A stretch of 62,977 nucleotides of DNA from positions 1 to 62,977 of IMG/VR virus record IMGVR_UViG_3300022821_000003. One strand, written 5' to 3'. This stretch comes from a virus. Its lineage: Duplodnaviria > Caudoviricetes. How positions within the stretch are numbered: the stretch's first letter is position 1; each line of letters opens with the position of its first letter. A program made the position numbers and the translations under genes. Shown here piece after piece: positions 12,798 to 57,748 of this stretch. The notes under the pieces were generated by a model, which worked only from the letters and a program-made list of their open reading frames with translations, was not told the DNA's origin and ran no database searches.

Positions 12798-15700
12798 ATG
12801 GCTACTTTTGATAAAGGAAAAGCAGACAAGTTACTAGAACTATACAGACAAAAGAAAGCTGCTGGTCCACAAAAAATACAAGTTAAGAATCCTTATTCTA
12901 GGACAAGTGTTGACTATGAATCATTAGCTAGAGATACAAGTCAGGCTAATGGACAGCAACAAGATATAACTGTTCCACAGAAACAACCTCTATTAGATAG
13001 AGTAGGTTCTTATGTCGCACCACAAGAGAAGGCTAGAACTGTTGATTTCTTACGTGAACTGCCAGGAGCAGCAAAACAGATTGGATTAGATAAACCAGTA
13101 ACAGGATTAGGCTGGAACGTACTTAAAAATACTGTTAGTAAACTAGGAGAATTTATCGATAAAGGTGGAGCACAGGCTATTTCTGCATTATCATCTCCTA
13201 TAGAAGCATATACAGAATTAAATACAGCAGGAGATTTAGAGAAGAATAGATTGAATCCATCATCAGAACTTAGAGATTTTAAAAAGGTATGGAAGACTGC
13301 AGCTGATATTTGGGCAGGACGTGCTAATGAAATAGGACATCCATTAGAAGACTTATTCACTCCAGATGAACCAGGTAAAGGAATGAGAGCATTAGTAGAA
13401 CAACCTGCGCAAGAAGCTGCACAGAGCTTTTATGATGACACAAGTTTAGGGAATAGAGTTAAACAGATTGCTAAATTAACTGGACTAGGAGTAGAATCTA
13501 TATTTGGTAACCCTTTTTACTTATTTAATATAAGCGGATTGTCAAAGGGAAGTTTTAAGATACCTAAAGAACAAAGAGCATTAACACTCCAAGGTTTGTT
13601 AAACCCAGAGAAAGACTCTGCGTTAAGAGTATTAGGTTTAGAAAAAGGAGCAACTAATGTTGAGATTAAACTAGCCTACAGGAAACTAGCTCACAAATAT
13701 CATCCAGATAAAGTTGGCGGAGATGAAGCTTTATTTAAAACAATCAATGATGCTTATGCATCTTTAACGAAGAATAAACAATTTGCAATACCACACAAGG
13801 AACCCGTCAAACCAACAGGAACGCCAGTAAGAACAACTCCAGGAGGATTACAAGGAGGAGCAAGTAGACAGATATTACAAGAAGGAGTCAGTCAGAAACC
13901 AGTTATCCCATCACAAAACACTCCACTCGCTGCATTCCAAATGGTAAATTCAGCACAGCAGGAAGCAATGAATACGATCGTACAAAAGCTAGAGAAAGCA
14001 AAGGCTAAAAAAACAAAGCTAATTGCTGAAGGCAGAGATGTAGTTGCTACAAAGAAATCACTAGCAACAATAAACAAAACAATAGAAAAGATTAAAGCTA
14101 AGCTAAACACAGCACAGGACAATCAAGATATTACAACAGGTCCAGTATCTGCACCAAAGATAGTATCTCCAACGATAGAACTTCCAGCACCAGAAACAGT
14201 TATACCTCTTAGACAACCTAATACAGATATTGTTGTTTGGAATGATAGAGCTAAAACAGAGATAGCAAAACCAACAACAAGAATATTAACAGTAAAGCCT
14301 GGAACAATAATAAAGACACCAGTTAGAAATACAGCACAAATAGACAATAAAACAACAAAAATACCAGTTAGAAAGACAGCTCCGATAGTAATTAGAGAGC
14401 CTAAATCATATAGTCAGATAGCCAAAGAATCTTCAGCAAGAGATGTTAGTAAAAAGAGCTCAGCAATACAAAGATTGATTGCAGGAAGGAAGGGAACTAA
14501 AACAGTTGCTAGAACAGAGCCAAAAACAGCTACAATATCAATACCTAAAGAGAGTAAACGGTTTGTGACTGATGTGGATTTGTTTAAGAAACTGACAAAG
14601 ATGAAGAAAGATGGCAAGACTGAAAACGACTTCATGATGCTTGAAGCAAAAGCAGCAGAGGACTTTGCAGCTGGAAAAACAACCACAGATAAGTCAATAG
14701 CTATAAACGACTTCATAGAAGACAACTTCAGAAAATCTGGAGGAAGACTATACTCAAAGACATCTAAAACAATAGACACAGCCGCTAAAAGAGGTGTAAA
14801 AAAAGTAGAGCCTAAGAAACTGACTTGGTTAGAAAAACTTAGAAATCGAAGTGGAGCTAAAACAGAAGTAGAGTTTAAGTTAGTTACAGAAGGACAAAGA
14901 CTTATAAGAAAATACGGTAAACTTGTATCTGAATCTGGAACACCTAGAAGAGCAGCAGGAGTCCATTATAAAAATACTGGTAATATACTTGTTAGATCAC
15001 TAACAGATATACCAACAGTTTCGCATGAACTTACACATAGACTTGACAGCCACCTAGGAATAACAGATAAAATGAGAAGGTTAGGAGATGACTCTATATT
15101 AAATGATTTAGAAGAAATATATTTAGCATATTATCCAGGAGCCAATAAAAAAGCATCTAATTCTCTAAAGACAAGAGAAGGACTCGCAACTCTGATAGAG
15201 AACTATGCTTTAAATCCTGAAATAGTTACAGAAGAATTTCCACTATTAGTAGGAGCTATATTAAAATCTACTGGTAAATATTATGATAAGAAAGTAGCAG
15301 AACTTGTTGCAGATGTAGATAGCATTATAGGAAGATACCAAGCACTAGCTGATATTGACAAAGTAGGAGCAATGTCTGCAGCAGATAAACAAATAATACC
15401 TGCAAATAAAACTTTCACAAAAGCGGATGATGCAACAACATTCTTCGCTGATTATATTCACCCATTTGAGAAACTAGCAAGAGTCTTTGGTAAGGATATG
15501 ACAAATGAAGATCCATCAGTATGGTTTAGGCATAGAAGAAATGCAAGTAATGTTGCTATGTATAACATATCACAGAATAAGGACTGGTATTTGCTTAACA
15601 AAGATGGAGAGATGGTTAAGAAGTTCGATTATAATATGAAAAGCATTGGCAAGGACTTGATTGACAAAGGTTTGTATACTATATATGGAAACTACTTAAA

Positions 15701-18026
15701 AGCTAGAAGAAAATTCTATGAAAATAAAGAGCTAGAAGAACTACAAGCTAGTCTGACTCCAACTGAAGAAGATATTGATAGAATAGAAACATTAAAGAAG
15801 ATACAAGAAACAGAAGAATGGGATATGAATGTTGTTAATAATGTTGTTAATCAGTTCAAAGATGAGTTTAAGGAATACGATCAAAAAGTTGATAGTATAA
15901 ATGAAGAACTATTAAAACTTCTAATAGATGTAAAGATAGTTGATGCAGAAGCAGGAGCAAGGATGCTTAAAACAAAAGGATACATACCCTTCTTCAGAAC
16001 AATGCTAGATGAGATTGAAAAAACACCAGTTATGAAAAGTGGTAAAAGTATGCCATCAACAGTAATACAGAACATAATCAAAAGGAAAGGTTCAAAAAAA
16101 GCTATCGAAGACCCATTCATAAGTTCTATAAAAGCTAGTATGCATGTCTTTGAAAAAGCAATGCTACAGAAAACATTTGAAAATATATATAAAATGAGAA
16201 GTCGTGGTGATGTGATTAAGGAAGTAGAAACACAACCAGTTCCTATGGGAAACAAGATTGTTTATCCAAAGAACAAAGGGAATGTTATATCCTTTAAGCA
16301 TAATGATAAGGTTGTAACTTTAGGATTGTCGCCAGAATTAGCTCAAGTATTTCAAACAGATTTAGAATTAAGAAGCCAAGGGAATATGGCGAGAATGGTT
16401 AAATGGTTTTCTAGACTATTCGTTAAGAGTACTACTGGTGTTTTATATCCAGCATTCATGCTTACGAACATATTGATAGATAGTCCATCTGCATACGCTC
16501 AGTCACAGAATACAGTTAAACCAATTATTGATGGTGTTAGATATATAGCGAAAGCTAAAACAAATAAGAATTCATTTGAAGCACAGACTTGGAAAGAATG
16601 GAGGGTATTCGGTGGATTAGAGTCAGCGCAAATAGCAATGTACGATAAATCTTCTACAGAGCTAATGAGAAAGATAGGAATAAAACAACTAGCTAGAGGA
16701 AAGGTTAAGGAAGCGTTTGTTTCATTAAAAGATATCTTTTCGGTACCTTCTGAGTATAGTGAAGCATTAAATAGATACCCAGAATATCACAGAGCTAGAT
16801 TAGCTGGAAAAAGTCAACCAGTTGCGATGGAAGAATCTGCAAGAATAACAGCATCATTCTCACATACTGGAAGTCTAGGTAATCCATTTATGAGAAGCTT
16901 ATTACAATCTGTCCCTTATGGGAACTCTCCTTTACAGGTTACAGCATCTGCAATTAGAGGAATAAGAGATCCAAAAACTAGAGTTAGAGCAGTAAGGACA
17001 TACATGGTGTTAGCATCTTTGAGTGTAGGTGGATTAATGAAGTTAATATACTCATTTAAAAAAGCTAAAGACTCTGGAGATGAAGATGAGATAGAGAGAA
17101 TACAAACCCTGATAAATAATTACAAGAACTTTAATACATATGAATTAGGCAACAACATAATAACGATAGACTCATTTACGAAGGAAGGGATTCTTAAAAT
17201 GAGGACACCAGCAAACTATAACATCATAGGAACTCTTATTAATATGTCGTTAGCAGAACAATATCTAGGAAAAGAATTCGACTATAAAGATTATATAGAT
17301 GCAATAAAAGACCCATTTATTTCTGCTCAATTTGATATAACTGAACCACTTAAACTAGCAACAAGTTGGCTTGCACCTCCGATGAAGGCAATCATCGAGT
17401 CTGGGCTAGGGAAGAAAACATTCCCAGAAGTCAAAGACTTAGAACCATTCTATATGGCTACATGGAATAGCGAAGATAGATACTTCCCATATACAAATGA
17501 TATTGCAATAATGTTGGGTCAGACTGAAGTTATGAAGGCTAAAGGAATATCACCATTACAGATAGAACACTTCTTGAAGACTGTACATGGACGTGGTATT
17601 GAGAATTTATATAAGAATATCAATGATGGTTTACCAGATGTATTAAAGAATCAGTTTGATGAGATACGACGAGTATTCAAAAGTAAAGCATATGATTTTC
17701 ATGGAGTTGGTTATGAACAGTTTTACGAAGATAGAAACAGAATGAATAATGATTATTCTAAAGCTCGTAAAGCTAAGGATAGGAATAAGGTAAGAGAACT
17801 AGCAGATACTAATAAGATATATAATAAGGTTAGTGAAATGATGACAAGTTTAAGGAAGATAAATGCAGAGAGTGATAATACAATTCCGAATGAATACTCT
17901 AACGATATATATGGGATAATAGAAGCACTGAATAAGAAGGATTATGTAGAGGCAGAAAAGCTATACAGATCAAATGCTAGAGGTATAAATTATTATATCG
18001 AACAAGAAAAAAGAAGACTTAGATAA
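12798..18026 (+). CDS. Large polyvalent / DNA ejection protein (1742 aa) with J-domain, HExxH zincin-like region and LPD38-like C-terminus
   Basis: J-domain VLGLEKGA...AYRKLAHKYHPDK...FKTINDAYASL; HELTH motif; last gene of the structural arm. Confidence 0.65.
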   Translation: MATFDKGKADKLLELYRQKKAAGPQKIQVKNPYSRTSVDYESLARDTSQANGQQQDITVPQKQPLLDRVGSYVAPQEKARTVDFLRELPGAAKQIGLDKPVTGLGWNVLKNTVSKLGEFIDKGGAQAISALSSPIEAYTELNTAGDLEKNRLNPSSELRDFKKVWKTAADIWAGRANEIGHPLEDLFTPDEPGKGMRALVEQPAQEAAQSFYDDTSLGNRVKQIAKLTGLGVESIFGNPFYLFNISGLSKGSFKIPKEQRALTLQGLLNPEKDSALRVLGLEKGATNVEIKLAYRKLAHKYHPDKVGGDEALFKTINDAYASLTKNKQFAIPHKEPVKPTGTPVRTTPGGLQGGASRQILQEGVSQKPVIPSQNTPLAAFQMVNSAQQEAMNTIVQKLEKAKAKKTKLIAEGRDVVATKKSLATINKTIEKIKAKLNTAQDNQDITTGPVSAPKIVSPTIELPAPETVIPLRQPNTDIVVWNDRAKTEIAKPTTRILTVKPGTIIKTPVRNTAQIDNKTTKIPVRKTAPIVIREPKSYSQIAKESSARDVSKKSSAIQRLIAGRKGTKTVARTEPKTATISIPKESKRFVTDVDLFKKLTKMKKDGKTENDFMMLEAKAAEDFAAGKTTTDKSIAINDFIEDNFRKSGGRLYSKTSKTIDTAAKRGVKKVEPKKLTWLEKLRNRSGAKTEVEFKLVTEGQRLIRKYGKLVSESGTPRRAAGVHYKNTGNILVRSLTDIPTVSHELTHRLDSHLGITDKMRRLGDDSILNDLEEIYLAYYPGANKKASNSLKTREGLATLIENYALNPEIVTEEFPLLVGAILKSTGKYYDKKVAELVADVDSIIGRYQALADIDKVGAMSAADKQIIPANKTFTKADDATTFFADYIHPFEKLARVFGKDMTNEDPSVWFRHRRNASNVAMYNISQNKDWYLLNKDGEMVKKFDYNMKSIGKDLIDKGLYTIYGNYLKARRKFYENKELEELQASLTPTEEDIDRIETLKKIQETEEWDMNVVNNVVNQFKDEFKEYDQKVDSINEELLKLLIDVKIVDAEAGARMLKTKGYIPFFRTMLDEIEKTPVMKSGKSMPSTVIQNIIKRKGSKKAIEDPFISSIKASMHVFEKAMLQKTFENIYKMRSRGDVIKEVETQPVPMGNKIVYPKNKGNVISFKHNDKVVTLGLSPELAQVFQTDLELRSQGNMARMVKWFSRLFVKSTTGVLYPAFMLTNILIDSPSAYAQSQNTVKPIIDGVRYIAKAKTNKNSFEAQTWKEWRVFGGLESAQIAMYDKSSTELMRKIGIKQLARGKVKEAFVSLKDIFSVPSEYSEALNRYPEYHRARLAGKSQPVAMEESARITASFSHTGSLGNPFMRSLLQSVPYGNSPLQVTASAIRGIRDPKTRVRAVRTYMVLASLSVGGLMKLIYSFKKAKDSGDEDEIERIQTLINNYKNFNTYELGNNIITIDSFTKEGILKMRTPANYNIIGTLINMSLAEQYLGKEFDYKDYIDAIKDPFISAQFDITEPLKLATSWLAPPMKAIIESGLGKKTFPEVKDLEPFYMATWNSEDRYFPYTNDIAIMLGQTEVMKAKGISPLQIEHFLKTVHGRGIENLYKNINDGLPDVLKNQFDEIRRVFKSKAYDFHGVGYEQFYEDRNRMNNDYSKARKAKDRNKVRELADTNKIYNKVSEMMTSLRKINAESDNTIPNEYSNDIYGIIEALNKKDYVEAEKLYRSNARGINYYIEQEKRRLR

Positions 18027-19392: not shown

Positions 19393-19464
19393 CACGAAGT
19401 TATGGAATCGAACCACAATGTTCGGTTTTGGAGACCGACATAATAACCGTTATATGAACTTCGC
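19393..19464 (-). tRNA. tRNA-Trp (CCA)
   Basis: Cloverleaf: acceptor GCGAAGT/ACTTCGT, anticodon arm TCGGT-CTCCAAA-ACCGA, T arm TGTGG-TTCGATT-CCATA. Confidence 0.85.
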
Positions 19465-28335: not shown

Positions 28336-28407
28336 AGCCATGAGTAGGAGTCGAACCTACGATCCAGGATTTGCAGTCGAGAGCCTTTCCGTCTTGGCTA
28401 TCATGGC
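28336..28407 (-). tRNA. tRNA-Cys (GCA), anticodon stem with two mismatches (possibly degenerate)
   Basis: GCCATGA/TCATGGC acceptor, U73, GTAGG-TTCGACT-CCTAC T arm; anticodon stem CTCGA/TCCTG. Confidence 0.7.
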
Positions 28408-49185: not shown

Positions 49186-49426
49186 AATTAAAAAAGTAGT
49201 ACCAAACAAAGGGCTCGTTGGATTTGCATCTTGCATTATTGAGGACTCTTTATTCTTGGGGAATATAGCAATATTCACAAGACTAGGAGAGGAAACTAGG
49301 ATGAGATTAGTATTTCCAATAAAAGAAACTGAACAAAATAAAATATCAGTGTTTCACCCGTTGACTGCAGAGTTGTACTACTTGCTAGAACAGGCGATTA
49401 CTGAAAAATATAAAGAGAATGATTAA
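49166..49426 (+). CDS. SpoVG-like nucleic-acid-binding protein
   Basis: MKISKVKI...GFASCII...I.IF...LVFP...HPL pattern. Confidence 0.6.
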   Translation: MKISKVKIKKVVPNKGLVGFASCIIEDSLFLGNIAIFTRLGEETRMRLVFPIKETEQNKISVFHPLTAELYYLLEQAITEKYKEND

Positions 49427-51275
49427 TCTAGAATATTTAAGAAAACAAAAAATAGAAACTGGACGTAATCCAGAAGTTATTAAATTTATAGATAGTCTTT
49501 ATACATCTACTTCAGCTATGTATCTGAAGCAGCATAAAGACTGGTATATAAGTGATAGGTTTGTTCGTGGCGACCATTGGATTGTTTATAACAAGACTCT
49601 AAATAGAGTACAAACAGTTCCTCTTGTAGAAGGAGAAGTCAGACGGACAATAAACAAAATTAGGTCACAACTTCGTGGTATTAAAAACTTCGTTAAAAGA
49701 AGTCAACCAAGATGGGAAGTCCATCCTAATGATAGCACTGACGAAGCATATGCAGAAGCATCTAAGAAGAATAAACTTCTACAGAATATATATAGGACAA
49801 GAAAAATTAAACAAAGCTTGACGGATTTGATTGTTAATGCTTTTAAATATTCTGCTGGGTTCTTAGAAGGCGGATATGTTAAAAGAGATGGTAAAGACGT
49901 TATAGATTTTTGGATAGACAGTTCATATGATATATTACCAGATCCATATGCATCAACAATCCCAAGTTGTAGATACATTTTTAAGACATTTGTAAAGCCA
50001 GTTGAATCAATTAAAGGAAATAAGGAATATACTATTAAAGATGAGAAGATTTCAGATAACAGGGAGGCTGCTGCAGATTATAAGAATATATTAGAACTTG
50101 AAAAATATAACAGAGAATCTAATAAAACTAACAAGGACTTAGAAACAGCAGTTGTTAAAGAACTATGGTTAAAATGGATTGAAAAAGATGAAGTGAAAGT
50201 TAGAGTTATCACTGTTGTAGGAAATAATGTTGCAAGAGTATATAACCCTAAATATAGAAGATACCCAATATTCAATTATAACCCAGAACGTAATGAGGAG
50301 TCGATCTTTAACACACCATGGATAAAAGATCTTATTTCTATTAATAAGTCATTAGACAAAACAGCTTCACAAGTAGAGGCATACATTCAGAGAATGCTTG
50401 CTGGCAAATACTTGATTAAGAAAGGTGTTGATGTTTCAATGATAACAGATAAAGGAGCAGAAAAGATTTACTATAAAGGACAGGTTCCACCTAAGCAGAT
50501 GGACTTACAACCACTACCAACAACACCATTTGTGTTTATGCAGAATCTTGAAGGTTGGATTGAGGAACTAGGCGGAGTCAGAGAAGCATCACTTGGTAAA
50601 GCAACAGGTTCTCTACAATCTGGTAAAGGGATTGAGGCGCTACAATCAGCAGATGCTGGAACTGTAGCAGAACCGATAGAGAATCTTGAGTTATTATTAC
50701 AAGACGTTGGTAATTTTGTACTAGAATTAATAGCTGATTATCAAATAGCATCAGATGAAATAATTGAAGATGGTCAGAAGATAAAATATGTTGGTAAAGT
50801 AGCTAATAATGAACCAGAAGGAGCAATGGTAATTGATGGCAACGATGAAATTAAAGTTACTATAGTTCCAGAGATTGCATATAGTGAAGATGCTAAAAAG
50901 GAATGGGCTATGAGATTAGCAGAAGCCAAACTGATAGATGGACAAACATTATTAGAACAGTTTAAATTCTCTAACATATCTGACATAGTAGATAGAATGG
51001 AAGTAAAGAAAGCAGAAGAGTTCAAACAAGATATGATGAAGCAGAGAGAAAGTCATAGATCAGACGGACAAGGTCCAGAAGATACAGCCGATCTCGCTGA
51101 TAGTGAAAACATGCAAATGTCAACTGGACAACAGGTACCAGAAACTCCTAAAGTTTTATGGACACCTGAACATACAGATTTACACATTTCATTTATTAAA
51201 GAGAATGGTGATGTTTACAAACAGAACCAGGAACTATTCGATGCTCATATATCAGCAGAAGAAAATTATCAATAA
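49419..51275 (+). CDS. Portal protein
   Basis: FVRGDHW, TINKIRS and SGKGIEALQ motifs; 618 aa; lies between terminase and scaffold. Confidence 0.8.
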   Translation: MINLEYLRKQKIETGRNPEVIKFIDSLYTSTSAMYLKQHKDWYISDRFVRGDHWIVYNKTLNRVQTVPLVEGEVRRTINKIRSQLRGIKNFVKRSQPRWEVHPNDSTDEAYAEASKKNKLLQNIYRTRKIKQSLTDLIVNAFKYSAGFLEGGYVKRDGKDVIDFWIDSSYDILPDPYASTIPSCRYIFKTFVKPVESIKGNKEYTIKDEKISDNREAAADYKNILELEKYNRESNKTNKDLETAVVKELWLKWIEKDEVKVRVITVVGNNVARVYNPKYRRYPIFNYNPERNEESIFNTPWIKDLISINKSLDKTASQVEAYIQRMLAGKYLIKKGVDVSMITDKGAEKIYYKGQVPPKQMDLQPLPTTPFVFMQNLEGWIEELGGVREASLGKATGSLQSGKGIEALQSADAGTVAEPIENLELLLQDVGNFVLELIADYQIASDEIIEDGQKIKYVGKVANNEPEGAMVIDGNDEIKVTIVPEIAYSEDAKKEWAMRLAEAKLIDGQTLLEQFKFSNISDIVDRMEVKKAEEFKQDMMKQRESHRSDGQGPEDTADLADSENMQMSTGQQVPETPKVLWTPEHTDLHISFIKENGDVYKQNQELFDAHISAEENYQ

Positions 51276-51671: not shown

Positions 51672-52415
51672 ATGGAAAATGAAACAAAGGTAGTACCAGA
51701 GGCTCCAGCAGCAGTAGAACCTACCACTACACCAGCTGAAGAAATCGTAACTTCGCAGGAAGTAAAAACTGAAGTACCAGTAGCAGAAGTTGCTCCAGTA
51801 CAAGATAATGTCGTAGATATGGCTAAGATGCAAGAACAAATAAGTAATTTGAACACAGCATTAAAGCAAGAGCGTGACACTGGCAAAGTCGAGAGCAAGG
51901 AGCTCAAAGAAGAACTTGCTAGGTCGAAGGAAACTATTGACAAACTTAAAAATGTCTTTAGTCCAGAGGTAGCAGTAGAAGAGGTTAATGAAACCTTATC
52001 AATTGATAAAATCACTGCTTTATTAGATGAGAGAGATAACAAAAAGAAAGAGGACGAGAGTAGGGAAACGCAAGCTCAAAAAATTAAAGCAGAAGTTTCA
52101 GATCTAGAAAAAGAATGGAATGGAGCAGAAGGTAAGCCAAAATACGAAGATGAAAAAGTCTTAGATTGGCAAGAAAATAACCAAAAGTTATACCTATCTC
52201 CAAGAGAAGCTTTTAATGAAATGAACAGAGACACAATCATTGATTGGGAAATTAAAAATAGACTTAACAAAAAACCAGAGGTCCAAAGTGTTGAAACTCC
52301 AGGAGGTTCACCTACAAGTAGGGAACCAATAGAGATGAAACCTAAGACGACCGAGGAACTTCGTAGTGCTATCTCAGAAGCAATGGACGCAGCTTCTGAT
52401 GAGAATATAAACTAA
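51672..52415 (+). CDS. Capsid scaffolding protein
   Basis: Acidic coiled-coil protein directly upstream of the capsid gene. Confidence 0.7.
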   Translation: MENETKVVPEAPAAVEPTTTPAEEIVTSQEVKTEVPVAEVAPVQDNVVDMAKMQEQISNLNTALKQERDTGKVESKELKEELARSKETIDKLKNVFSPEVAVEEVNETLSIDKITALLDERDNKKKEDESRETQAQKIKAEVSDLEKEWNGAEGKPKYEDEKVLDWQENNQKLYLSPREAFNEMNRDTIIDWEIKNRLNKKPEVQSVETPGGSPTSREPIEMKPKTTEELRSAISEAMDAASDENIN

Positions 52416-52460
52416 TATCTACGAAGTTACGATATACGGATTTCGTAGTAACATAAACAC

Positions 52461-55400
52461 ATGGCACAGTCCGTAACAAACATGGCTGGAGCTGCGATAA
52501 ATCTTGTCGCCTCGTAGAGTAATCTACGTGTAAAATCAATTAAATTGCGGGAACATCCTTAGAGCTTTAACTACACTGACTCGTGTAAAAACGTTAAAGA
52601 TTGGACAATCTGCATCAAAATCTTATGACAATTAAAAGGTGTGTTCATTGTAATAGAGATTACAAGACACAAGACACTAAAAGAAAATTTTGTTCACAAA
52701 AATGTTTTAGAGAATGGAGAAAAGAAAATTGGCATCCATCTCAAGACCATAAAGATTCAATAAGTAAAAAATTAAAAGGTCAAAAATCAACTGGGAAGCC
52801 CTTCGAGAAGGGGCATACGATAAACAATGGTAGAGAACCATGGAATAAAAATAAAACTGGAGTTCAGAAAGCATGGAATAAAGGATTAGTAATGAAGAAT
52901 TACTACGATGAAGAACAGTACCAAAAATTTATAAAAGGTTGTATAAAAGGTGGAATTGCTTGTTGCTTAAAAGTAGCAGACAATACAAATAGAACAAAAA
53001 TAGAAATAATATTAGAAGATATAGTAGAAGAACTTGGAATAAAATATATGACACAGTATCCATTACTTGGGATAACTGTAGCAGATATATATTTGCCAGA
53101 CCACCATATAGCAATATATGCAGATGGAGATTACTGGCATAACTATCCTCATGGAACGAATAAAGACCATGAAGTTAACAAGGAACTAAAGAATGCTAAT
53201 ATACAAGTAATGCGTTTCTGGGAATGTGACATATATAAAGACATTGACAGAGTAAAAAAAATCATAAGAGATGTTCAGAGACTATAATATTGCCCCTCGG
53301 CAGAGGGTGAAGGGATAGTCCGACTTATACCGAAAGGTATTGGATATACATGGAGAGTATATGACGGCGTTGTTCACGAGCAAGTATTCACAAAGAATGT
53401 TTTGTTCATGAATGTATTAAAAAACGTTGCTCATGATACTGGAGCAGTTTCAGTCGCAGGCGCTTCAGCTACAGGTGGTGGTGGTAAAATGATTACAGTA
53501 CATTATGGTCGTAAATGTGTTGCGACCCTTAGAAAGTAATTTCTTTGACAATTTAACTAACTATATGCTGGAAACTCCTTAGAGCCTTTCGTACCAAAGT
53601 GTAAAAATCGAAAGGATTGGACAATCAGCAGAAAAGATTTCTATGAAAGAAAACAAATATCTTGCATATTTAACAGGAGTTTACCTTTCAGATGGATCAT
53701 GTTTTAAACATGAGAGAGGATATGTTTTTAAACTATCTTCAATTGATATGGATTATATAAATTATACAAATAAATGTATAGATAATCTGATAAACAAAAC
53801 TGGATCTATTTACGAAAGTAAACCAACTGGATGGGGCAAGAAAAATATATTCACAATTCGCATATACGAAAAGCAATTATTTGAATATTTAACAATACAA
53901 ACAGAAAAGAAAACAAAAATACCAACTTGGATTTTAGAAGGGAAAGAAAGCATTAAAAAAGAATTTATTGCTGGAATGGTGGATGGTGATGGTTGGGTTG
54001 TTTTCAACGTATCTGGTACTGGGAGAGGTTTAAACTGGCAAATCGGATTAAGTGGTTCTGAAATAATGATGAACAATATTTCAAGAATGTGTAATAAAAT
54101 GCAACTTAAATCGTGGGGTCCAACAAAAATCAAAACTAGTAAAAATACGTATAGACTATTTTTCGACACACTTGATTTTATAAAATTTAAAATAAAATTA
54201 AGGATAGACAGGAAAATGGCTAGAATAAATTTCATTAGAAAAATTCTCAACGACTACATGTTAGTCTCCAAGACAAATCCAAAAAGGATTAAAGAAGTTC
54301 TTGGATGAAGATATAGTCTCATCTTTATGTAGACATAAAGCTAAGATATTAAACGAACACTGGTAGTGCAGCTGGATCTGAATCATTAACTTTACCTACA
54401 GCTGGACAGCAAGCTTATATACAAGCTAACATCCCGATGAAATATAACTTTCATCAAATTTCTCTTACAGACGTTGTTTTACAAGGTTCAAAGAGATCAA
54501 AAGAGTTCTTAGTAAACGTTTTAGAATCAGAATATGATGGAGCTAAGAATGATATGCAGAGACAGTTATCACGTCAAGGGTATGGTATTAAACGACTTCT
54601 TACCAGGTTACTGATTCCATCGTGTGCCCTATAAAACACACAAATAAAATTATCACTAATAAGGGGAATCCTGAAATTGGCAACCCCTAGCAAGCACATT
54701 ACAATTTATTTCGGTTTTATATAATAAAATATGAAACAAACAAAAGCAATTAAACTGGCTTATCTAGCTGGCTTTATAGATGGAGAAGGATGTATAATGA
54801 TAGCAAAAAGAAATCCTAGATTAGAAGGAAGAATAAATGTTAGTTATTCAATTCTATTAACAATATCTCAAAAAGATGGAGCAATAATGGATTGGTTAAC
54901 TGGTAACTTCGGAGGTAGTGTTCAATATAAGAACAAAGAAAGAGATATTTATGTCTGGAATATAACACATAAGAAAGCAGCAAAAGTACTTAAAGAAGTC
55001 CTTCCATTTATCAAATATAAAAGACCACAAATAGAAATTGCTATTAGATTACAAAATAGATTAACCAAAACGTTAAAAGGAAAAGATGGCAGAGCATTAC
55101 CATTAACTGATAGCGAAATAATCAAACGAGAAGAAATGTATTTAGAATGCAAAAAACTAAAACATATTTATAAAGAATCAAAATACCGAAATAAATTAAA
55201 TAATGGTGCAGCTGTAGAGACTAAGTGTGATAACCTAGAGATAGGAAGCGATAGTCCGACCTTGCAGAAATAACAACTGTAAGATGTTAGCAGAAATGAC
55301 TAACACTCCTCAATAGAGGAAGTAACAACTTGGGAACTGGAGAAATTGCTAAAGTAAATGCAGACCCTTCAACTGGTACTACTGTAGAATTAGACAACCC

Positions 55401-56127
55401 TATGGTTGGAAAAAATCCTACAGATTATATCGAGATTGGAAACGTTTTAAGATTTGGAGCAACAGCTTCAACTATTGGAACAGTAGATTCAATCACAGAT
55501 GGTGATACTTTCGAATTAGCAGCTGGAGTTGCAGCAATCGCTGACAATGACCCAGTGTACATTGCACAAACGGCTACACAGTCAAACAAAGACGCTGAAA
55601 TAATGGGACTTAAAGGTCTTATTGATGATGGTGCTAATCTTACCACTTTAGAAGGTCTTTCTAGATCTACTTACATTTGGTGGCAGTCATATGTTAATGA
55701 TAATACTTCACAACGTTCATTAACAGACGCTTTACTTCATACTACTTGGATTGAAGCACAGAAGAAAGGTGATACTAAATATATCCTTACTTCATGGGAC
55801 GTACAATCAGCTTATGGACAACTTTTAACTCCAGATAGACGTTATACTAACGGAGACATGCAGTTAAATGGTGGGTTCAAAGGGGTAGACTTTAACGGGA
55901 TACCAATGGTAGCTGACTATGACGCTCCATATGATGAAGCTTACTTCATCGACCCTTCAACTTTATCAATTGAAGATTTAGCTCCTATCTCATTTTTGAA
56001 AGAAGATGGTGCTATTCTAGACAGAAGTGCAACGACACCTGCTTGGAATGCCACGCTTCGTTACTATGCTAATTTATGCAACAAGGCACCGAACAAATCG
56101 GCTGCCCTTAGAGATATTGTCAAATAG
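52461..56127 (+). CDS. Major capsid protein, 4 exons: 52461-52498, 53353-53512, 54356-54589, 55333-56127 (408 aa spliced)
   Basis: Exons join in frame (MAQSVTNMAGAAM|RVYDG...HYGR|NTGSAAGSESLTLPTAG...RQGYGI|GTGEIAK...). Capsid-like motifs (GLKGLI, FNGIPMVADYD) and position after the scaffold. Confidence 0.85.
52499..53352 (+). mobile_element. Group I intron 1 in MCP
   Basis: P1 GCGAU/GUCGC with U-G, core AATTGCGGGAA and CAATCTGCA, P7 GACTA/TAGTC, terminal G. Confidence 0.9.
52625..53287 (+). CDS. Intron-encoded Vsr/DUF559-like (EDxHD-type) homing endonuclease
   Basis: N-terminal Zn ribbon (CVHC...FCSQKC), PWNK repeats and ADIYLP...ADGDYWH...VMRFWE. Confidence 0.8.
   Translation: MTIKRCVHCNRDYKTQDTKRKFCSQKCFREWRKENWHPSQDHKDSISKKLKGQKSTGKPFEKGHTINNGREPWNKNKTGVQKAWNKGLVMKNYYDEEQYQKFIKGCIKGGIACCLKVADNTNRTKIEIILEDIVEELGIKYMTQYPLLGITVADIYLPDHHIAIYADGDYWHNYPHGTNKDHEVNKELKNANIQVMRFWECDIYKDIDRVKKIIRDVQRL
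53513..54355 (+). mobile_element. Group I intron 2 in MCP
   Basis: P1 GGUCGU/GCGACC, P10 GUGUU pairing with exon AACAC, core ATGCTGGAAA/CAATCAGCAG, P7 GACTA/TAGTC, terminal G. Confidence 0.9.
53643..54308 (+). CDS. Intron-encoded double-motif LAGLIDADG endonuclease
   Basis: LAYLTGVYLSDGS and FIAGMVDGDGW motifs. Confidence 0.85.
   Translation: MKENKYLAYLTGVYLSDGSCFKHERGYVFKLSSIDMDYINYTNKCIDNLINKTGSIYESKPTGWGKKNIFTIRIYEKQLFEYLTIQTEKKTKIPTWILEGKESIKKEFIAGMVDGDGWVVFNVSGTGRGLNWQIGLSGSEIMMNNISRMCNKMQLKSWGPTKIKTSKNTYRLFFDTLDFIKFKIKLRIDRKMARINFIRKILNDYMLVSKTNPKRIKEVLG
54590..55332 (+). mobile_element. Group I intron 3 in MCP
   Basis: P1 AUGGUAUU/GAUUCCAU, P10-like CCAGGUU against exon GGAACUGG, P7 GACTA/TAGTC, terminal G. 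The 5' site is slightly less certain. Confidence 0.8.
54731..55273 (+). CDS. Intron-encoded single-motif LAGLIDADG endonuclease
   Basis: LAYLAGFIDGEGCI, FGGSV and LPFIKYKRPQ motifs. Confidence 0.9.
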   Translation: MKQTKAIKLAYLAGFIDGEGCIMIAKRNPRLEGRINVSYSILLTISQKDGAIMDWLTGNFGGSVQYKNKERDIYVWNITHKKAAKVLKEVLPFIKYKRPQIEIAIRLQNRLTKTLKGKDGRALPLTDSEIIKREEMYLECKKLKHIYKESKYRNKLNNGAAVETKCDNLEIGSDSPTLQK

Positions 56128-56178
56128 ATTTTATCTAGCATAAGATAAAGAATAGGTTCGATAGACGAAAGTGGGGGA

Positions 56179-56715
56179 TTGGTTAGATCAGTCCCCCAGC
56201 CTATATTAGCTATAATTAATCTAACTAATTGTATGAACAAAACTTGTATTTTATGTGGAGAAATCTACGAAAGACAAAACAACTGTACTATCGGAATTTG
56301 GAACAAAAGAAAATTTTGTTCGCCAGAATGCTCACAGATAGCTAGGGTAGGAATGAAACATTCTGAAGAAACAAAACAAAAGATTAGGAAAACAAAAACA
56401 GGATCGATACCATGGAATAAGGGTACTGGATATAAAACTAAACTTCAAAAGAAGATTAGGTCTTGTACTAAATATATAGAATGGAGGACATCCATATACG
56501 AAAGAGATAACTGGGTATGCAAAACATGCAATACTAAAGGATTGAAACTCACAGCACATCACATGAAATCTTTTGCACTTATACTAAAGGAATATAAGAT
56601 TAAAACATTATATGAAGCAGAAGATTGTGATAAGTTGTGGGATTTGGACAATGGAGTTACGCTCTGTCATGAGTGTCATAAACTAACGGATAGTTATGGC
56701 AAAAACATTAACTAG
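56179..56715 (+). CDS. Free-standing HNH endonuclease (NUMOD3), paralog of 22766..23323; likely start 56233
   Basis: HSEETKQKI, WRTSIYERDNWVCKTC, AHH and NGVTLCHECH motifs. Confidence 0.85.
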   Translation: MVRSVPQPILAIINLTNCMNKTCILCGEIYERQNNCTIGIWNKRKFCSPECSQIARVGMKHSEETKQKIRKTKTGSIPWNKGTGYKTKLQKKIRSCTKYIEWRTSIYERDNWVCKTCNTKGLKLTAHHMKSFALILKEYKIKTLYEAEDCDKLWDLDNGVTLCHECHKLTDSYGKNIN

Positions 56716-56767
56716 TATCTCACTTACTGGGTGAGGGTAAACTATTAAACATAAACAGCTTAAACAA

Positions 56768-57748
56768 ATGATAAAAAATAGAAATATTGCTCCAGATGCA
56801 GCTATCTCCATTTCGAAAGTTATGGGTGCTGGAATGCTAGGAGCAGGAAGAATCTTGTATGTAGCACCAGCTTCATCAGCTTCTTACTCACGTTGGAATG
56901 GAACTGTTCCATCTTCAGATTTATACACTACCATTGCAGCAGCTTATGCTCAGGTAGTTACAAATAGGAATGATGTTATTGTTCTTTCTCCAGATGGTCA
57001 CGCTCAAACAGAAATGTTATCTCTTTCAAAGAATAGGTTTCATATCATAGGAGCTGACGCTGGCGGACGATACCAAGGAGCTAGATGTAGAATCACAATG
57101 GGCACAACTGGTGTCGCTACAGACTTAGCAGTAATGCAAAACACTGGAGTAGGTGTTAGCTTTACTAATATTAAATTTGATAGTTCGAGTGAAACAACAG
57201 AAAGTTTGTACTCAGTTATCGAAGCAGGTGAATACGCAAAGTATGAAGGTTGTGAGTTCTATAAGTCAACTGACTTAGACGGGGACCAAGCAGCAGAATT
57301 AGTACTTAACGGAGACACTGCACTATTTAGAAATTGTGCATTTGGTTCAACATCAAACATTGTTGCAGATGCAAAAATTAGACCTAATGTACTTCTTACT
57401 GGAGGTATTGTTAGTGGAAAGAAATGTAGAGATTCAATCTTTGACGATTGTATTTTCTTATCTAAAGCAGGTGGTAATGAGCATAATGCTGTATACGGTG
57501 CCAACGCAACAGATGTAGAAAGAATGTTACAATTTAAAGGATGTACTTTCTTCAATAACCCACTTTCAGCCGCAACTCCTGATGCAGCTATTGCTTTCGG
57601 AGCAGCACAAACAGAAGGAGCAGTTTTCTGCGACACAAACTGTGCAGTAGTAAACATAGTCGTTATGGGAACAACTGGACAGAACATTTTTGTTGTGTCA
57701 CAGGATGGTTCAACTTATTCAACTGCTGGATTATCAGTAGCTTCTTAA
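56768..57748 (+). CDS. Virion structural protein (beta-helix-like, possible capsid decoration)
   Basis: Follows the MCP; LYV...YTTIAAAY...NDVIVLSP pectate-lyase-like start. Confidence 0.55.
   Translation: MIKNRNIAPDAAISISKVMGAGMLGAGRILYVAPASSASYSRWNGTVPSSDLYTTIAAAYAQVVTNRNDVIVLSPDGHAQTEMLSLSKNRFHIIGADAGGRYQGARCRITMGTTGVATDLAVMQNTGVGVSFTNIKFDSSSETTESLYSVIEAGEYAKYEGCEFYKSTDLDGDQAAELVLNGDTALFRNCAFGSTSNIVADAKIRPNVLLTGGIVSGKKCRDSIFDDCIFLSKAGGNEHNAVYGANATDVERMLQFKGCTFFNNPLSAATPDAAIAFGAAQTEGAVFCDTNCAVVNIVVMGTTGQNIFVVSQDGSTYSTAGLSVAS

Follow-up and report, generated by a model that had tools for sequence, protein, structure and literature searches.

Major capsid protein (MCP) genes interrupted by introns have been described before. 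Yutin et al. 2021 reported intron-rich MCP genes in crAss-like phages of the Delta and Zeta groups, including one Zeta-group MCP gene in five fragments with intron-type domains in three of its four inserts (PMC7886860). Group I introns also interrupt capsid genes of lactococcal phage Tuc2009 and mycobacteriophage LittleE, and splicing in LittleE was proven by reverse transcription-PCR and N-terminal sequencing across the joint (PMC3706429). Beyond capsid genes, the DNA polymerase and terL genes of Bastillevirinae contain two or three introns, and the Rfam group I intron model RF00028 gave only partial matches where a nuclease open reading frame (ORF) splits the core (PMC11878797). Jug phages carry an average of 18.5 group I introns per genome (PMC12880540), and intron nucleases have already been published as competition factors (PMC11620839). 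Here we describe the capsid locus (positions 52461 to 56127) of IMG/VR virus record IMGVR_UViG_3300022821_000003, a complete phage genome that spans 62,977 bp, has direct terminal repeats, and derives from salt-lake metagenomes; the window is the whole of this record, and all genes named around the capsid locus lie on the + strand. From its sequence, the single major capsid gene of this phage is very probably interrupted by three mobile group I introns.

The orf142 gene of phage Twort reportedly contains three group I introns. In having two or three such introns within one phage gene, this locus resembles orf142 and the Bastillevirinae genes; those multi-intron genes serve replication or packaging, or their function is unknown, whereas here the gene encodes a capsid protein. 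Like the crAss-like MCP genes, the capsid gene is broken up by group I-type inserts in which homing nuclease domains are encoded, but it belongs to a 63-kb genome from salt-lake metagenomes with a SU10/Mic1-like HK97 capsid and a P22-like portal (PMC7886860). Further, the crAss-like introns were recognized through protein domains, whereas here the ribozyme helices were mapped and are supported by covariation (PMC7886860). As in LittleE and Tuc2009, a major capsid gene intron carries a homing nuclease gene, the exon ends in U, and the intron ends in G; those genes have one intron each, and the LittleE nuclease is an HNH protein encoded on the opposite strand, whereas three introns are predicted here (PMC3706429). 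Our literature search found no report on this capsid family, although more introns in capsid genes may be listed in the supplements of the papers cited, and a paper on a group I intron database (PMC11835236) contains neither "capsid" nor "phage." A first-pass annotation of this DNA had called the capsid-gene location unusual, which overstates the case, since Tuc2009 and LittleE (PMC3706429) and the crAss-like Zeta MCP (PMC7886860) are in print. The three-intron capsid gene is well supported as a further example of a kind already described in other phages.

The ORF list of the window contained no full-length capsid ORF. The sole capsid ORF is a C-terminal one of 265 aa (55330 to 56127); its match to PHROG 14242 ("major head protein") covered positions 135 to 388 of the 396-position profile (E 3.4e-34), and a database search with it returned many uninterrupted relatives of 395 to 418 aa. 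One of these, P0003 (407 aa), aligned to the window by tblastn in four collinear pieces with 69 to 87% identity. Based on this search and a reading of the junctions, exon 1 (52461..52498, 38 nt) starts at Met1 and ends after the second base of the Met12 codon. Exon 2 (53353..53512, 160 nt) and exon 3 (54356..54589, 234 nt) were placed by tblastn of P0003 and the joined coding sequence (CDS), as was exon 4 (55333..56127, 795 nt with the stop), which the PHROG 14242 match also covers. Joined, the four exons form a CDS of 1,227 nt that encodes 408 aa plus the stop, and the product is 84.7% identical to P0003 over 406 aa with 0 gaps. The junctions were read from the sequence, and each is unique in frame. 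All exons end in T, and all inserts begin with AAA and end in G; the inserts measure 854, 843, and 743 nt (introns 1, 2, and 3). We found no frameshifts or stops in the exons relative to intact relatives. A search of the genome for capsid homologues gave 3 matches, all within the capsid locus, and thus no second capsid gene.

Contigs of two further sequencing runs, not flagged as the source of the record, covered all six exon-intron borders with 0 differences (X12 records 17, 19, and 21; X9 records 29, 30, and 31), and the arrangement is therefore real DNA and not an assembly accident. At least nine sequencing runs held half or more of the sequence words of the locus. No joints at intron borders were found in the contigs of four DNA runs, a result that is uninformative on intron-less alleles in those samples; the joints listed there all fell within the ORF of intron 3 and came from a single contig of low identity that belongs to another element.

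The fold and Protein Data Bank (PDB) profile tests used P0003, 84.7% identical to the spliced product, in place of the joined product itself. A profile search of the full library yielded 3,063 family representatives, from which 144 diverse sequences were taken for a deeper alignment. With this alignment, AlphaFold produced a model of P0003 with a predicted local distance difference test score (pLDDT) of 88.6 and a predicted template modeling (TM) score of 0.86; a first model based on 32 close relatives (pLDDT, 50.8) was discarded. Foldseek matched the P0003 model to the capsids of cyanophages Mic1 and A-1(L), Pseudomonas phage Pa223, HK97, and SU10 in the PDB (probability 1.00; TM, 0.38 to 0.69). 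The profile of 144 relatives matched the PDB capsid proteins 6j3q_A and 7f38_A (E about 4e-11); the shallow alignment had brought up no significant PDB match. Pfam SU10_MCP matched two relatives and not P0003. By this modeling, the predicted spliced product is an HK97-fold major capsid protein. The first-pass annotation had noted that a full-length capsid ORF is missing but that four exons join in frame to 408 aa, and it had called the gene a major capsid gene; both calls are borne out, as is the alignment to intron-less relatives that it had proposed as a check.

The inserts have the features of group I introns. In all three, the 5' splice site follows the U of a P1 U.G wobble formed with an internal guide. 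The terminal G is present in all three as well (53352, 54355, and 55332) and is conserved in relatives whose 3' borders were read, partly from flanking letters, with some 3' coordinates a few bases off and the 3' border of one relative (L013) misaligned. P7, GACUA(U)/(A)UAGUC, lies near the 3' end of each intron, and a P3-P9 core whose P3/P7 pseudoknot is kept by compensatory change was found in each. A scan for S-like motifs found them, on the + strand, at the three introns only.

Covariation among relatives supports the drawn helices. We aligned the 5' and 3' parts of each intron, drew helices by eye, and counted pairs with our own script. Compensatory changes were found in 22 of 61 pairs in the intron-1 family (6 sequences; 361/366 cells canonical), 11 of 73 pairs in the intron-2 family (4 sequences; 12 of 78 with P10; 282/292 cells canonical), and 19 of 59 pairs in the intron-3 family (5 to 6 sequences; 294/314 cells canonical). 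When the 3' partner was slid by 1 to 3 columns as a control, only 0 to 5 compensatory pairs remained, and 31 to 47% of cells were canonical versus 94 to 99% in the real alignments. P7 is uninformative here because it is invariant. In four relatives (L020, L003, L082, and L093), synonymous changes in the exons are accompanied by matching changes in P1 and P10. In intron 2, for instance, the synonymous exon change of GGU to GGC in L020 is compensated in P1 by a guide change of A to G, and P10 goes from AACA/UGUU to AAUA/UAUU in L003 and L020. Similarly, the otherwise conserved P1 guide of intron 3, GAUUCCA, becomes GGUUCCA in L082 and GUCCCCA in L093, tracking the exon of each.

For comparison with RF00028, the six half-introns were cut out as separate loci so that Infernal scored truncated matches. 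The two halves of intron 1 scored 28.2 bits (5') and 28.6 bits (3'), and the 3' half of intron 2 scored 36.6 bits (E 1.6e-7). In the alignments of these three halves, P (AAUUGCGGGAA), Q (AAUCUGCA), R (GUUCAGAGACUA), and S (UGAAGGGAUAGUC) were assigned, P1 to P9 aligned to the model, and the P1 U.G was placed exactly at the junction derived from protein homology. A search of the whole genome gave one subthreshold RF00028 match (54214 to 54340; 34.8 bits against a threshold of 50). Across nine related loci, Rfam at E<=0.1 gave two weak RF00028 matches (25.5 and 23.8 bits). The remaining Rfam searches returned two tRNAs only on the whole window at gathering thresholds and nothing on 52300 to 56900 at E<=10. 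The Infernal check proposed in the first-pass annotation thus failed for the intact introns, which fall below the RF00028 threshold because the nuclease ORFs (540 to 690 nt) split the core.

Intron 1 (52499..53352, + strand, 854 nt) begins with P1 (52494-52500/52504-52510, U.G at 52498/52506) and P2 (52513-18/52523-28), which is capped by a GUAA loop. The rest of the 5' domain consists of P4 (52546-51/52609-14), P5 (52556-58/52603-05), P5a (52565-71/52593-99), and P5b (52572-76/52583-87). P3 (52537-40/53289-92) closes across the 660-nt ORF and occurs in four combinations in the family (CAAU/AUUG, CUAU/AUAG, CCGU/ACGG, and CUGU/ACAG). P6 (52622-28/53262-68), P7 (53280-85/53315-20), P8 (53294-98/53303-07), and P9 (53327-31/53336-40) complete the core.

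In intron 2 (53513..54355, + strand, 843 nt), P1 lies at 53507-14/53520-27 with U.G at 53512/53522, P10 at 53517-21/54356-60, and P2 at 53531-35/53540-44. These are followed by P3 (53556-61/54260-65), P4 (53566-71/53625-30), P5 (53576-78/53619-21), P5a (53585-91/53609-15), P6 (53638-48/54230-41), P7 (54252-56/54314-18), P8 (54267-73/54299-54305), and P9 (54323-29/54334-40). The P5a/P5b extension is present in introns 1 and 2; P7.1/P7.2 was not seen. The two introns share a common core (P3-P6) at 72% identity over 69 nt by blastn (E 1.4e-4). The first-pass annotation had reported this sharing, and its three quoted words do occur in both introns; one of them, GATTGGACAATC, corresponds to the P5'/P4' (Q) region in the RF00028 alignment.

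Intron 3 (54590..55332, + strand, 743 nt) has P1 at 54583-90/54612-19 (U.G at 54589/54613), P2 at 54622-26/54637-41, P3 at 54650-56/55227-33, P4 at 54663-66/54684-87, and a P5 of 2 bp (54670-71/54679-80). The remaining helices are P6 (54689-97/55206-13), P7 (55219-23/55252-56), P8 (55234-37/55242-45), P9 (55261-67/55277-83), P9.1 (55286-90/55300-04), and P9.2 (55306-11/55316-22), and P3 is changed at two positions in L093. The first-pass calls of three group I introns and of a terminal G in each agree with these structures. Its claim of P1 U-G pairs stands for all three introns, but P1 of intron 3 also contains a U.U mismatch (54586/54616). In each intron, the frame of the upstream exon runs into a stop within P1/P2 and before P3 (52515-52517, 53537-53539, and 54632-54634). 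Ribosomes following the exon would therefore presumably leave the catalytic core folded.

Each intron carries one homing nuclease gene, and all three nuclease ORFs start in the P6 loop region. The intron-1 gene (52626..53287, +) matched PHROG 3339 ("homing endonuclease") and Pfam DUF559 (25.7 bits; cut-off, 20.6), with Vsr (23.7 bits; cut-off, 27) and MTES_1575 (25.9 bits; cut-off, 38.2) below cut-off. Its product combines an N-terminal Cys-rich/NUMOD-like DNA-binding part with a C-terminal DUF559/Vsr-like nuclease. The EDxHD family motif is a literal E-D-x-H-D; the translation contains instead a DGDYWH-type stretch. The ORF listed by the program starts at TTG 52601, which sits inside P5'/P4', whereas ATG 52626 is part of the P6 stem and is kept in 6 of 6 intron-1 homologues; the true nuclease start is therefore 52626. 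The stop falls within the GACUAUAA (R/P7) element. The intron-2 gene (53643..54308, +; 221 aa) matched Pfam LAGLIDADG_3 (27 bits; cut-off, 22.5) and PHROG 4645 and contains two LAGLIDADG-type motifs, the second of which was read from the translation and is unscored by Pfam. Its ATG (53643) is likewise part of the P6 stem and is kept in all intron-2 homologues; the ORF crosses P6', P7, P3', and P8 and stops in J8/7. The intron-3 gene (54731..55273, +; 180 aa) encodes a one-motif LAGLIDADG protein (Pfam LAGLIDADG_1, 40.6 bits; cut-off, 23.1; PHROG 5046), crosses P6', P7, P3', P8, and P7', and ends within the loop of P9. Pfam and the translations thus support the three nuclease types named in the first-pass annotation, the first of them as DUF559/Vsr-like rather than by a literal EDxHD motif. 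The core shared by introns 1 and 2, together with their unrelated nucleases, would fit independent nuclease capture by related ribozymes.

We infer splicing, its efficiency and independence of protein, and nuclease activity from these features. In the proposed mechanism, each intron of the pre-mRNA would fold into a P1-P9 ribozyme whose internal guide pairs with the upstream exon end, so that the 5' splice site is marked by a U.G wobble. This site would be attacked by free guanosine, and the released exon would then attack after the terminal G. The outcome would be an mRNA of 1,227 nt and a 408-aa HK97-fold capsid protein. The nucleases housed in the P6 loop regions (DUF559/Vsr-like, two-motif LAGLIDADG, and one-motif LAGLIDADG) would presumably cleave the intron-free capsid alleles of relatives infecting the same cell, and repair would copy the intron in.

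Several results weigh against three functional group I introns. No intron reached the RF00028 gathering score of 50 bits (best, 36.6 bits), and even at E<=10 RF00028 did not match the 5' half of intron 2 or either half of intron 3. When the 3' domain of the intron-1 family was turned into a covariance model, intron 2 gave just a weak, misregistered match (24.9 bits) and intron 3 gave none; no further credible site came up in the genome. The intron families are small (4 to 6 sequences each), and the percent-paired control is biased toward the drawn helices because these were drawn by eye from the same sequences. The nuclease ORFs overlap core helices and could lower self-splicing efficiency, and intron 3 of the window combines its P1 U.U mismatch with a weak P10. 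Finally, no RNA runs were listed among the sequencing runs that hold the locus sequence.

With these points in mind, we weighed other explanations of the inserts. They may be derived from group I introns yet need a protein helper to splice; this could be a host factor or the LAGLIDADG protein that the intron encodes, which would then serve as a maturase. Organelle LAGLIDADG proteins can double as maturases, and the compact cores, the ORFs running through P6'-P8/P9, and the 2-bp P5 of intron 3 would suit such a need. However, every canonical helix is present and conserved by covariation, and we know of no maturase role for the Vsr-like nuclease family carried by intron 1, so that we regard helper dependence as unlikely. 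A dead capsid gene, broken by nuclease-gene insertions and never rejoined in a defective or decaying phage genome, might be read from the missing RNA runs and the unmet Rfam thresholds. Yet this genome is complete, with its terminal repeats and no second capsid gene to replace the split one, and the exons are 73 to 87% identical to intact relatives, free of frameshifts and stops. Moreover, the same introns persist in many relatives (67 to 88% nucleotide identity) with compensatory changes that keep the helices, and the locus recurs in the nine or more runs noted above. Decay of the gene is thus very improbable.

LAGLIDADG domains also occur in inteins, and one could take the inserts for inteins or for free-standing nuclease genes that divide the capsid gene into separately translated pieces. 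The inserts, though, are out of frame with the exons: translation continued in the exon frame would end after 6, 8, and 14 sense codons of inserts 1, 2, and 3, respectively, so that they are not inteins; nor did Pfam find a Hint domain. As separate pieces, exon 1 would encode just 12 residues, and exons 2 to 4 have no start codons at their 5' ends. We give hardly any credence to either version. Three mobile group I introns in a single capsid gene therefore remain the explanation that we follow below.

We examined how these introns are distributed among relatives. When viral and metagenomic contigs were searched with the capsid protein, 83 related loci came up, of which 62 are distinct. Introns were found in 17 of the 62, at five sites in all: 13 loci have one intron and 4 have two (L018, L020, L087, and L045), with the status of L082 set by hand. 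Three introns were found in none of the 62, and the other 45 had no intron in the part that their contigs cover. It should be noted that many contigs are fragmentary and that site 2 is undercounted, because one of the two peptide patterns used in the locus search spans it. Site 1a, in the Met12 codon (A11/M12), is occupied in 8 loci and probably also in L093; site 1b (Tyr15 codon) in 3; site 2 (R65|N66) in 3; site 95 (aa 95|96) in 2; and site 3 (I143|G144) in 5. The three sites used in the window fall in protein motifs that vary little or not at all, which would be expected of homing sites.

Homologues of each intron, ORF included, were found by blastn at the same codon. Intron 1 has homologues in L087, L013, L049/L051, L069, and L075 (67 to 81% identity) and in part of L045; intron 2 in L018/L072, L020, and L003 (85 to 88%); and intron 3 in L087 (partial), L018/L072, L021, L082/L083, and L093 (67 to 84%). 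The subsets differ by relative, with introns 2 and 3 together in L018 and introns 1 and 3 together in L087. The many database "proteins" of this capsid family that span the C-terminal part only (241 to 330 aa) are probably the last exons of intron-split genes that were called as complete genes.

Further group I-like introns occur at sites that are empty in the window, namely, site 1b (L008/L084, L016/L065, and L020) and site 95 (L045 and L086). They contain R and S elements, GNRA-capped hairpins, and genes of the Vsr-like or LAGLIDADG type. Compared with the nuclease ORF of L008 (212 aa), those of L016 (63 aa) and L020 (134 aa) look truncated. In addition, contigs from other salt-lake runs share exon 1 and the first 60 nt of intron 1 (52400-52558) or the P3-P6 core of intron 3 (54655-54696) and then continue into unrelated sequence. 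This suggests that variant introns with other passengers may exist in the same habitat.

The genes around the capsid locus include, upstream, a P22-like portal gene identified by Pfam (49419-51275, +), followed by a 104-aa ORF from the ORF list (+) between the portal gene and the capsid stretch. An acidic 247-aa ORF (51672-52415, +) occupies the position of a scaffold gene, and Pfam gives only weak coiled-coil-type matches for it. Downstream, a free-standing HNH nuclease gene (56179-56715, +) begins 51 nt past the capsid stop, and the next structural gene starts at 56768. This fourth homing-type nuclease at the capsid locus matched Pfam NUMOD3 and, slightly below cut-off, HNH_2. Its Cys-rich/NUMOD-like N terminus is similar to that of the intron-1 nuclease, and both matched PHROG 1271. 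Elsewhere, the genome contains two tRNA genes (19393-19464 and 28336-28407, both on the - strand; Rfam, 52.6 and 53.5 bits) and a very long ORF of 1,742 aa (12798-18026, +) in the left-hand + strand block. Among 50,697 phage records, megablast found none that matched the region, and tblastn of exon 4 against the same records gave matches in 11, each at <60% identity.

Multi-intron capsid genes are already in print (PMC7886860), and current understanding is unchanged by this locus. For annotation, standard gene callers give just a 265-aa capsid fragment here. In this phage, capsid output must pass three predicted splicing events. The family as a whole forms a natural allele series, from genes in which no intron was observed through genes with one or two to the three-intron gene, with five sites and at least two nuclease families, and it could serve work on homing, on the swapping of nucleases, and on the part that introns play in competition between phages. 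Introns 1 and 2 and, as judged by eye, the site-95 introns have similar cores, yet their passengers are Vsr-like or LAGLIDADG nucleases. We tentatively raise the possibility, which we consider rather doubtful, that the SU10/Mic1-like capsid gene family is a standing battleground for intron-borne nucleases, in which one related ribozyme scaffold colonized several sites and exchanged passengers. If so, the three introns would provide immunity at three target sites together with three weapons against the only capsid gene of intron-less competitors, and with their start codons held in P6, translation of the nucleases would depend on how the ribozyme is folded.

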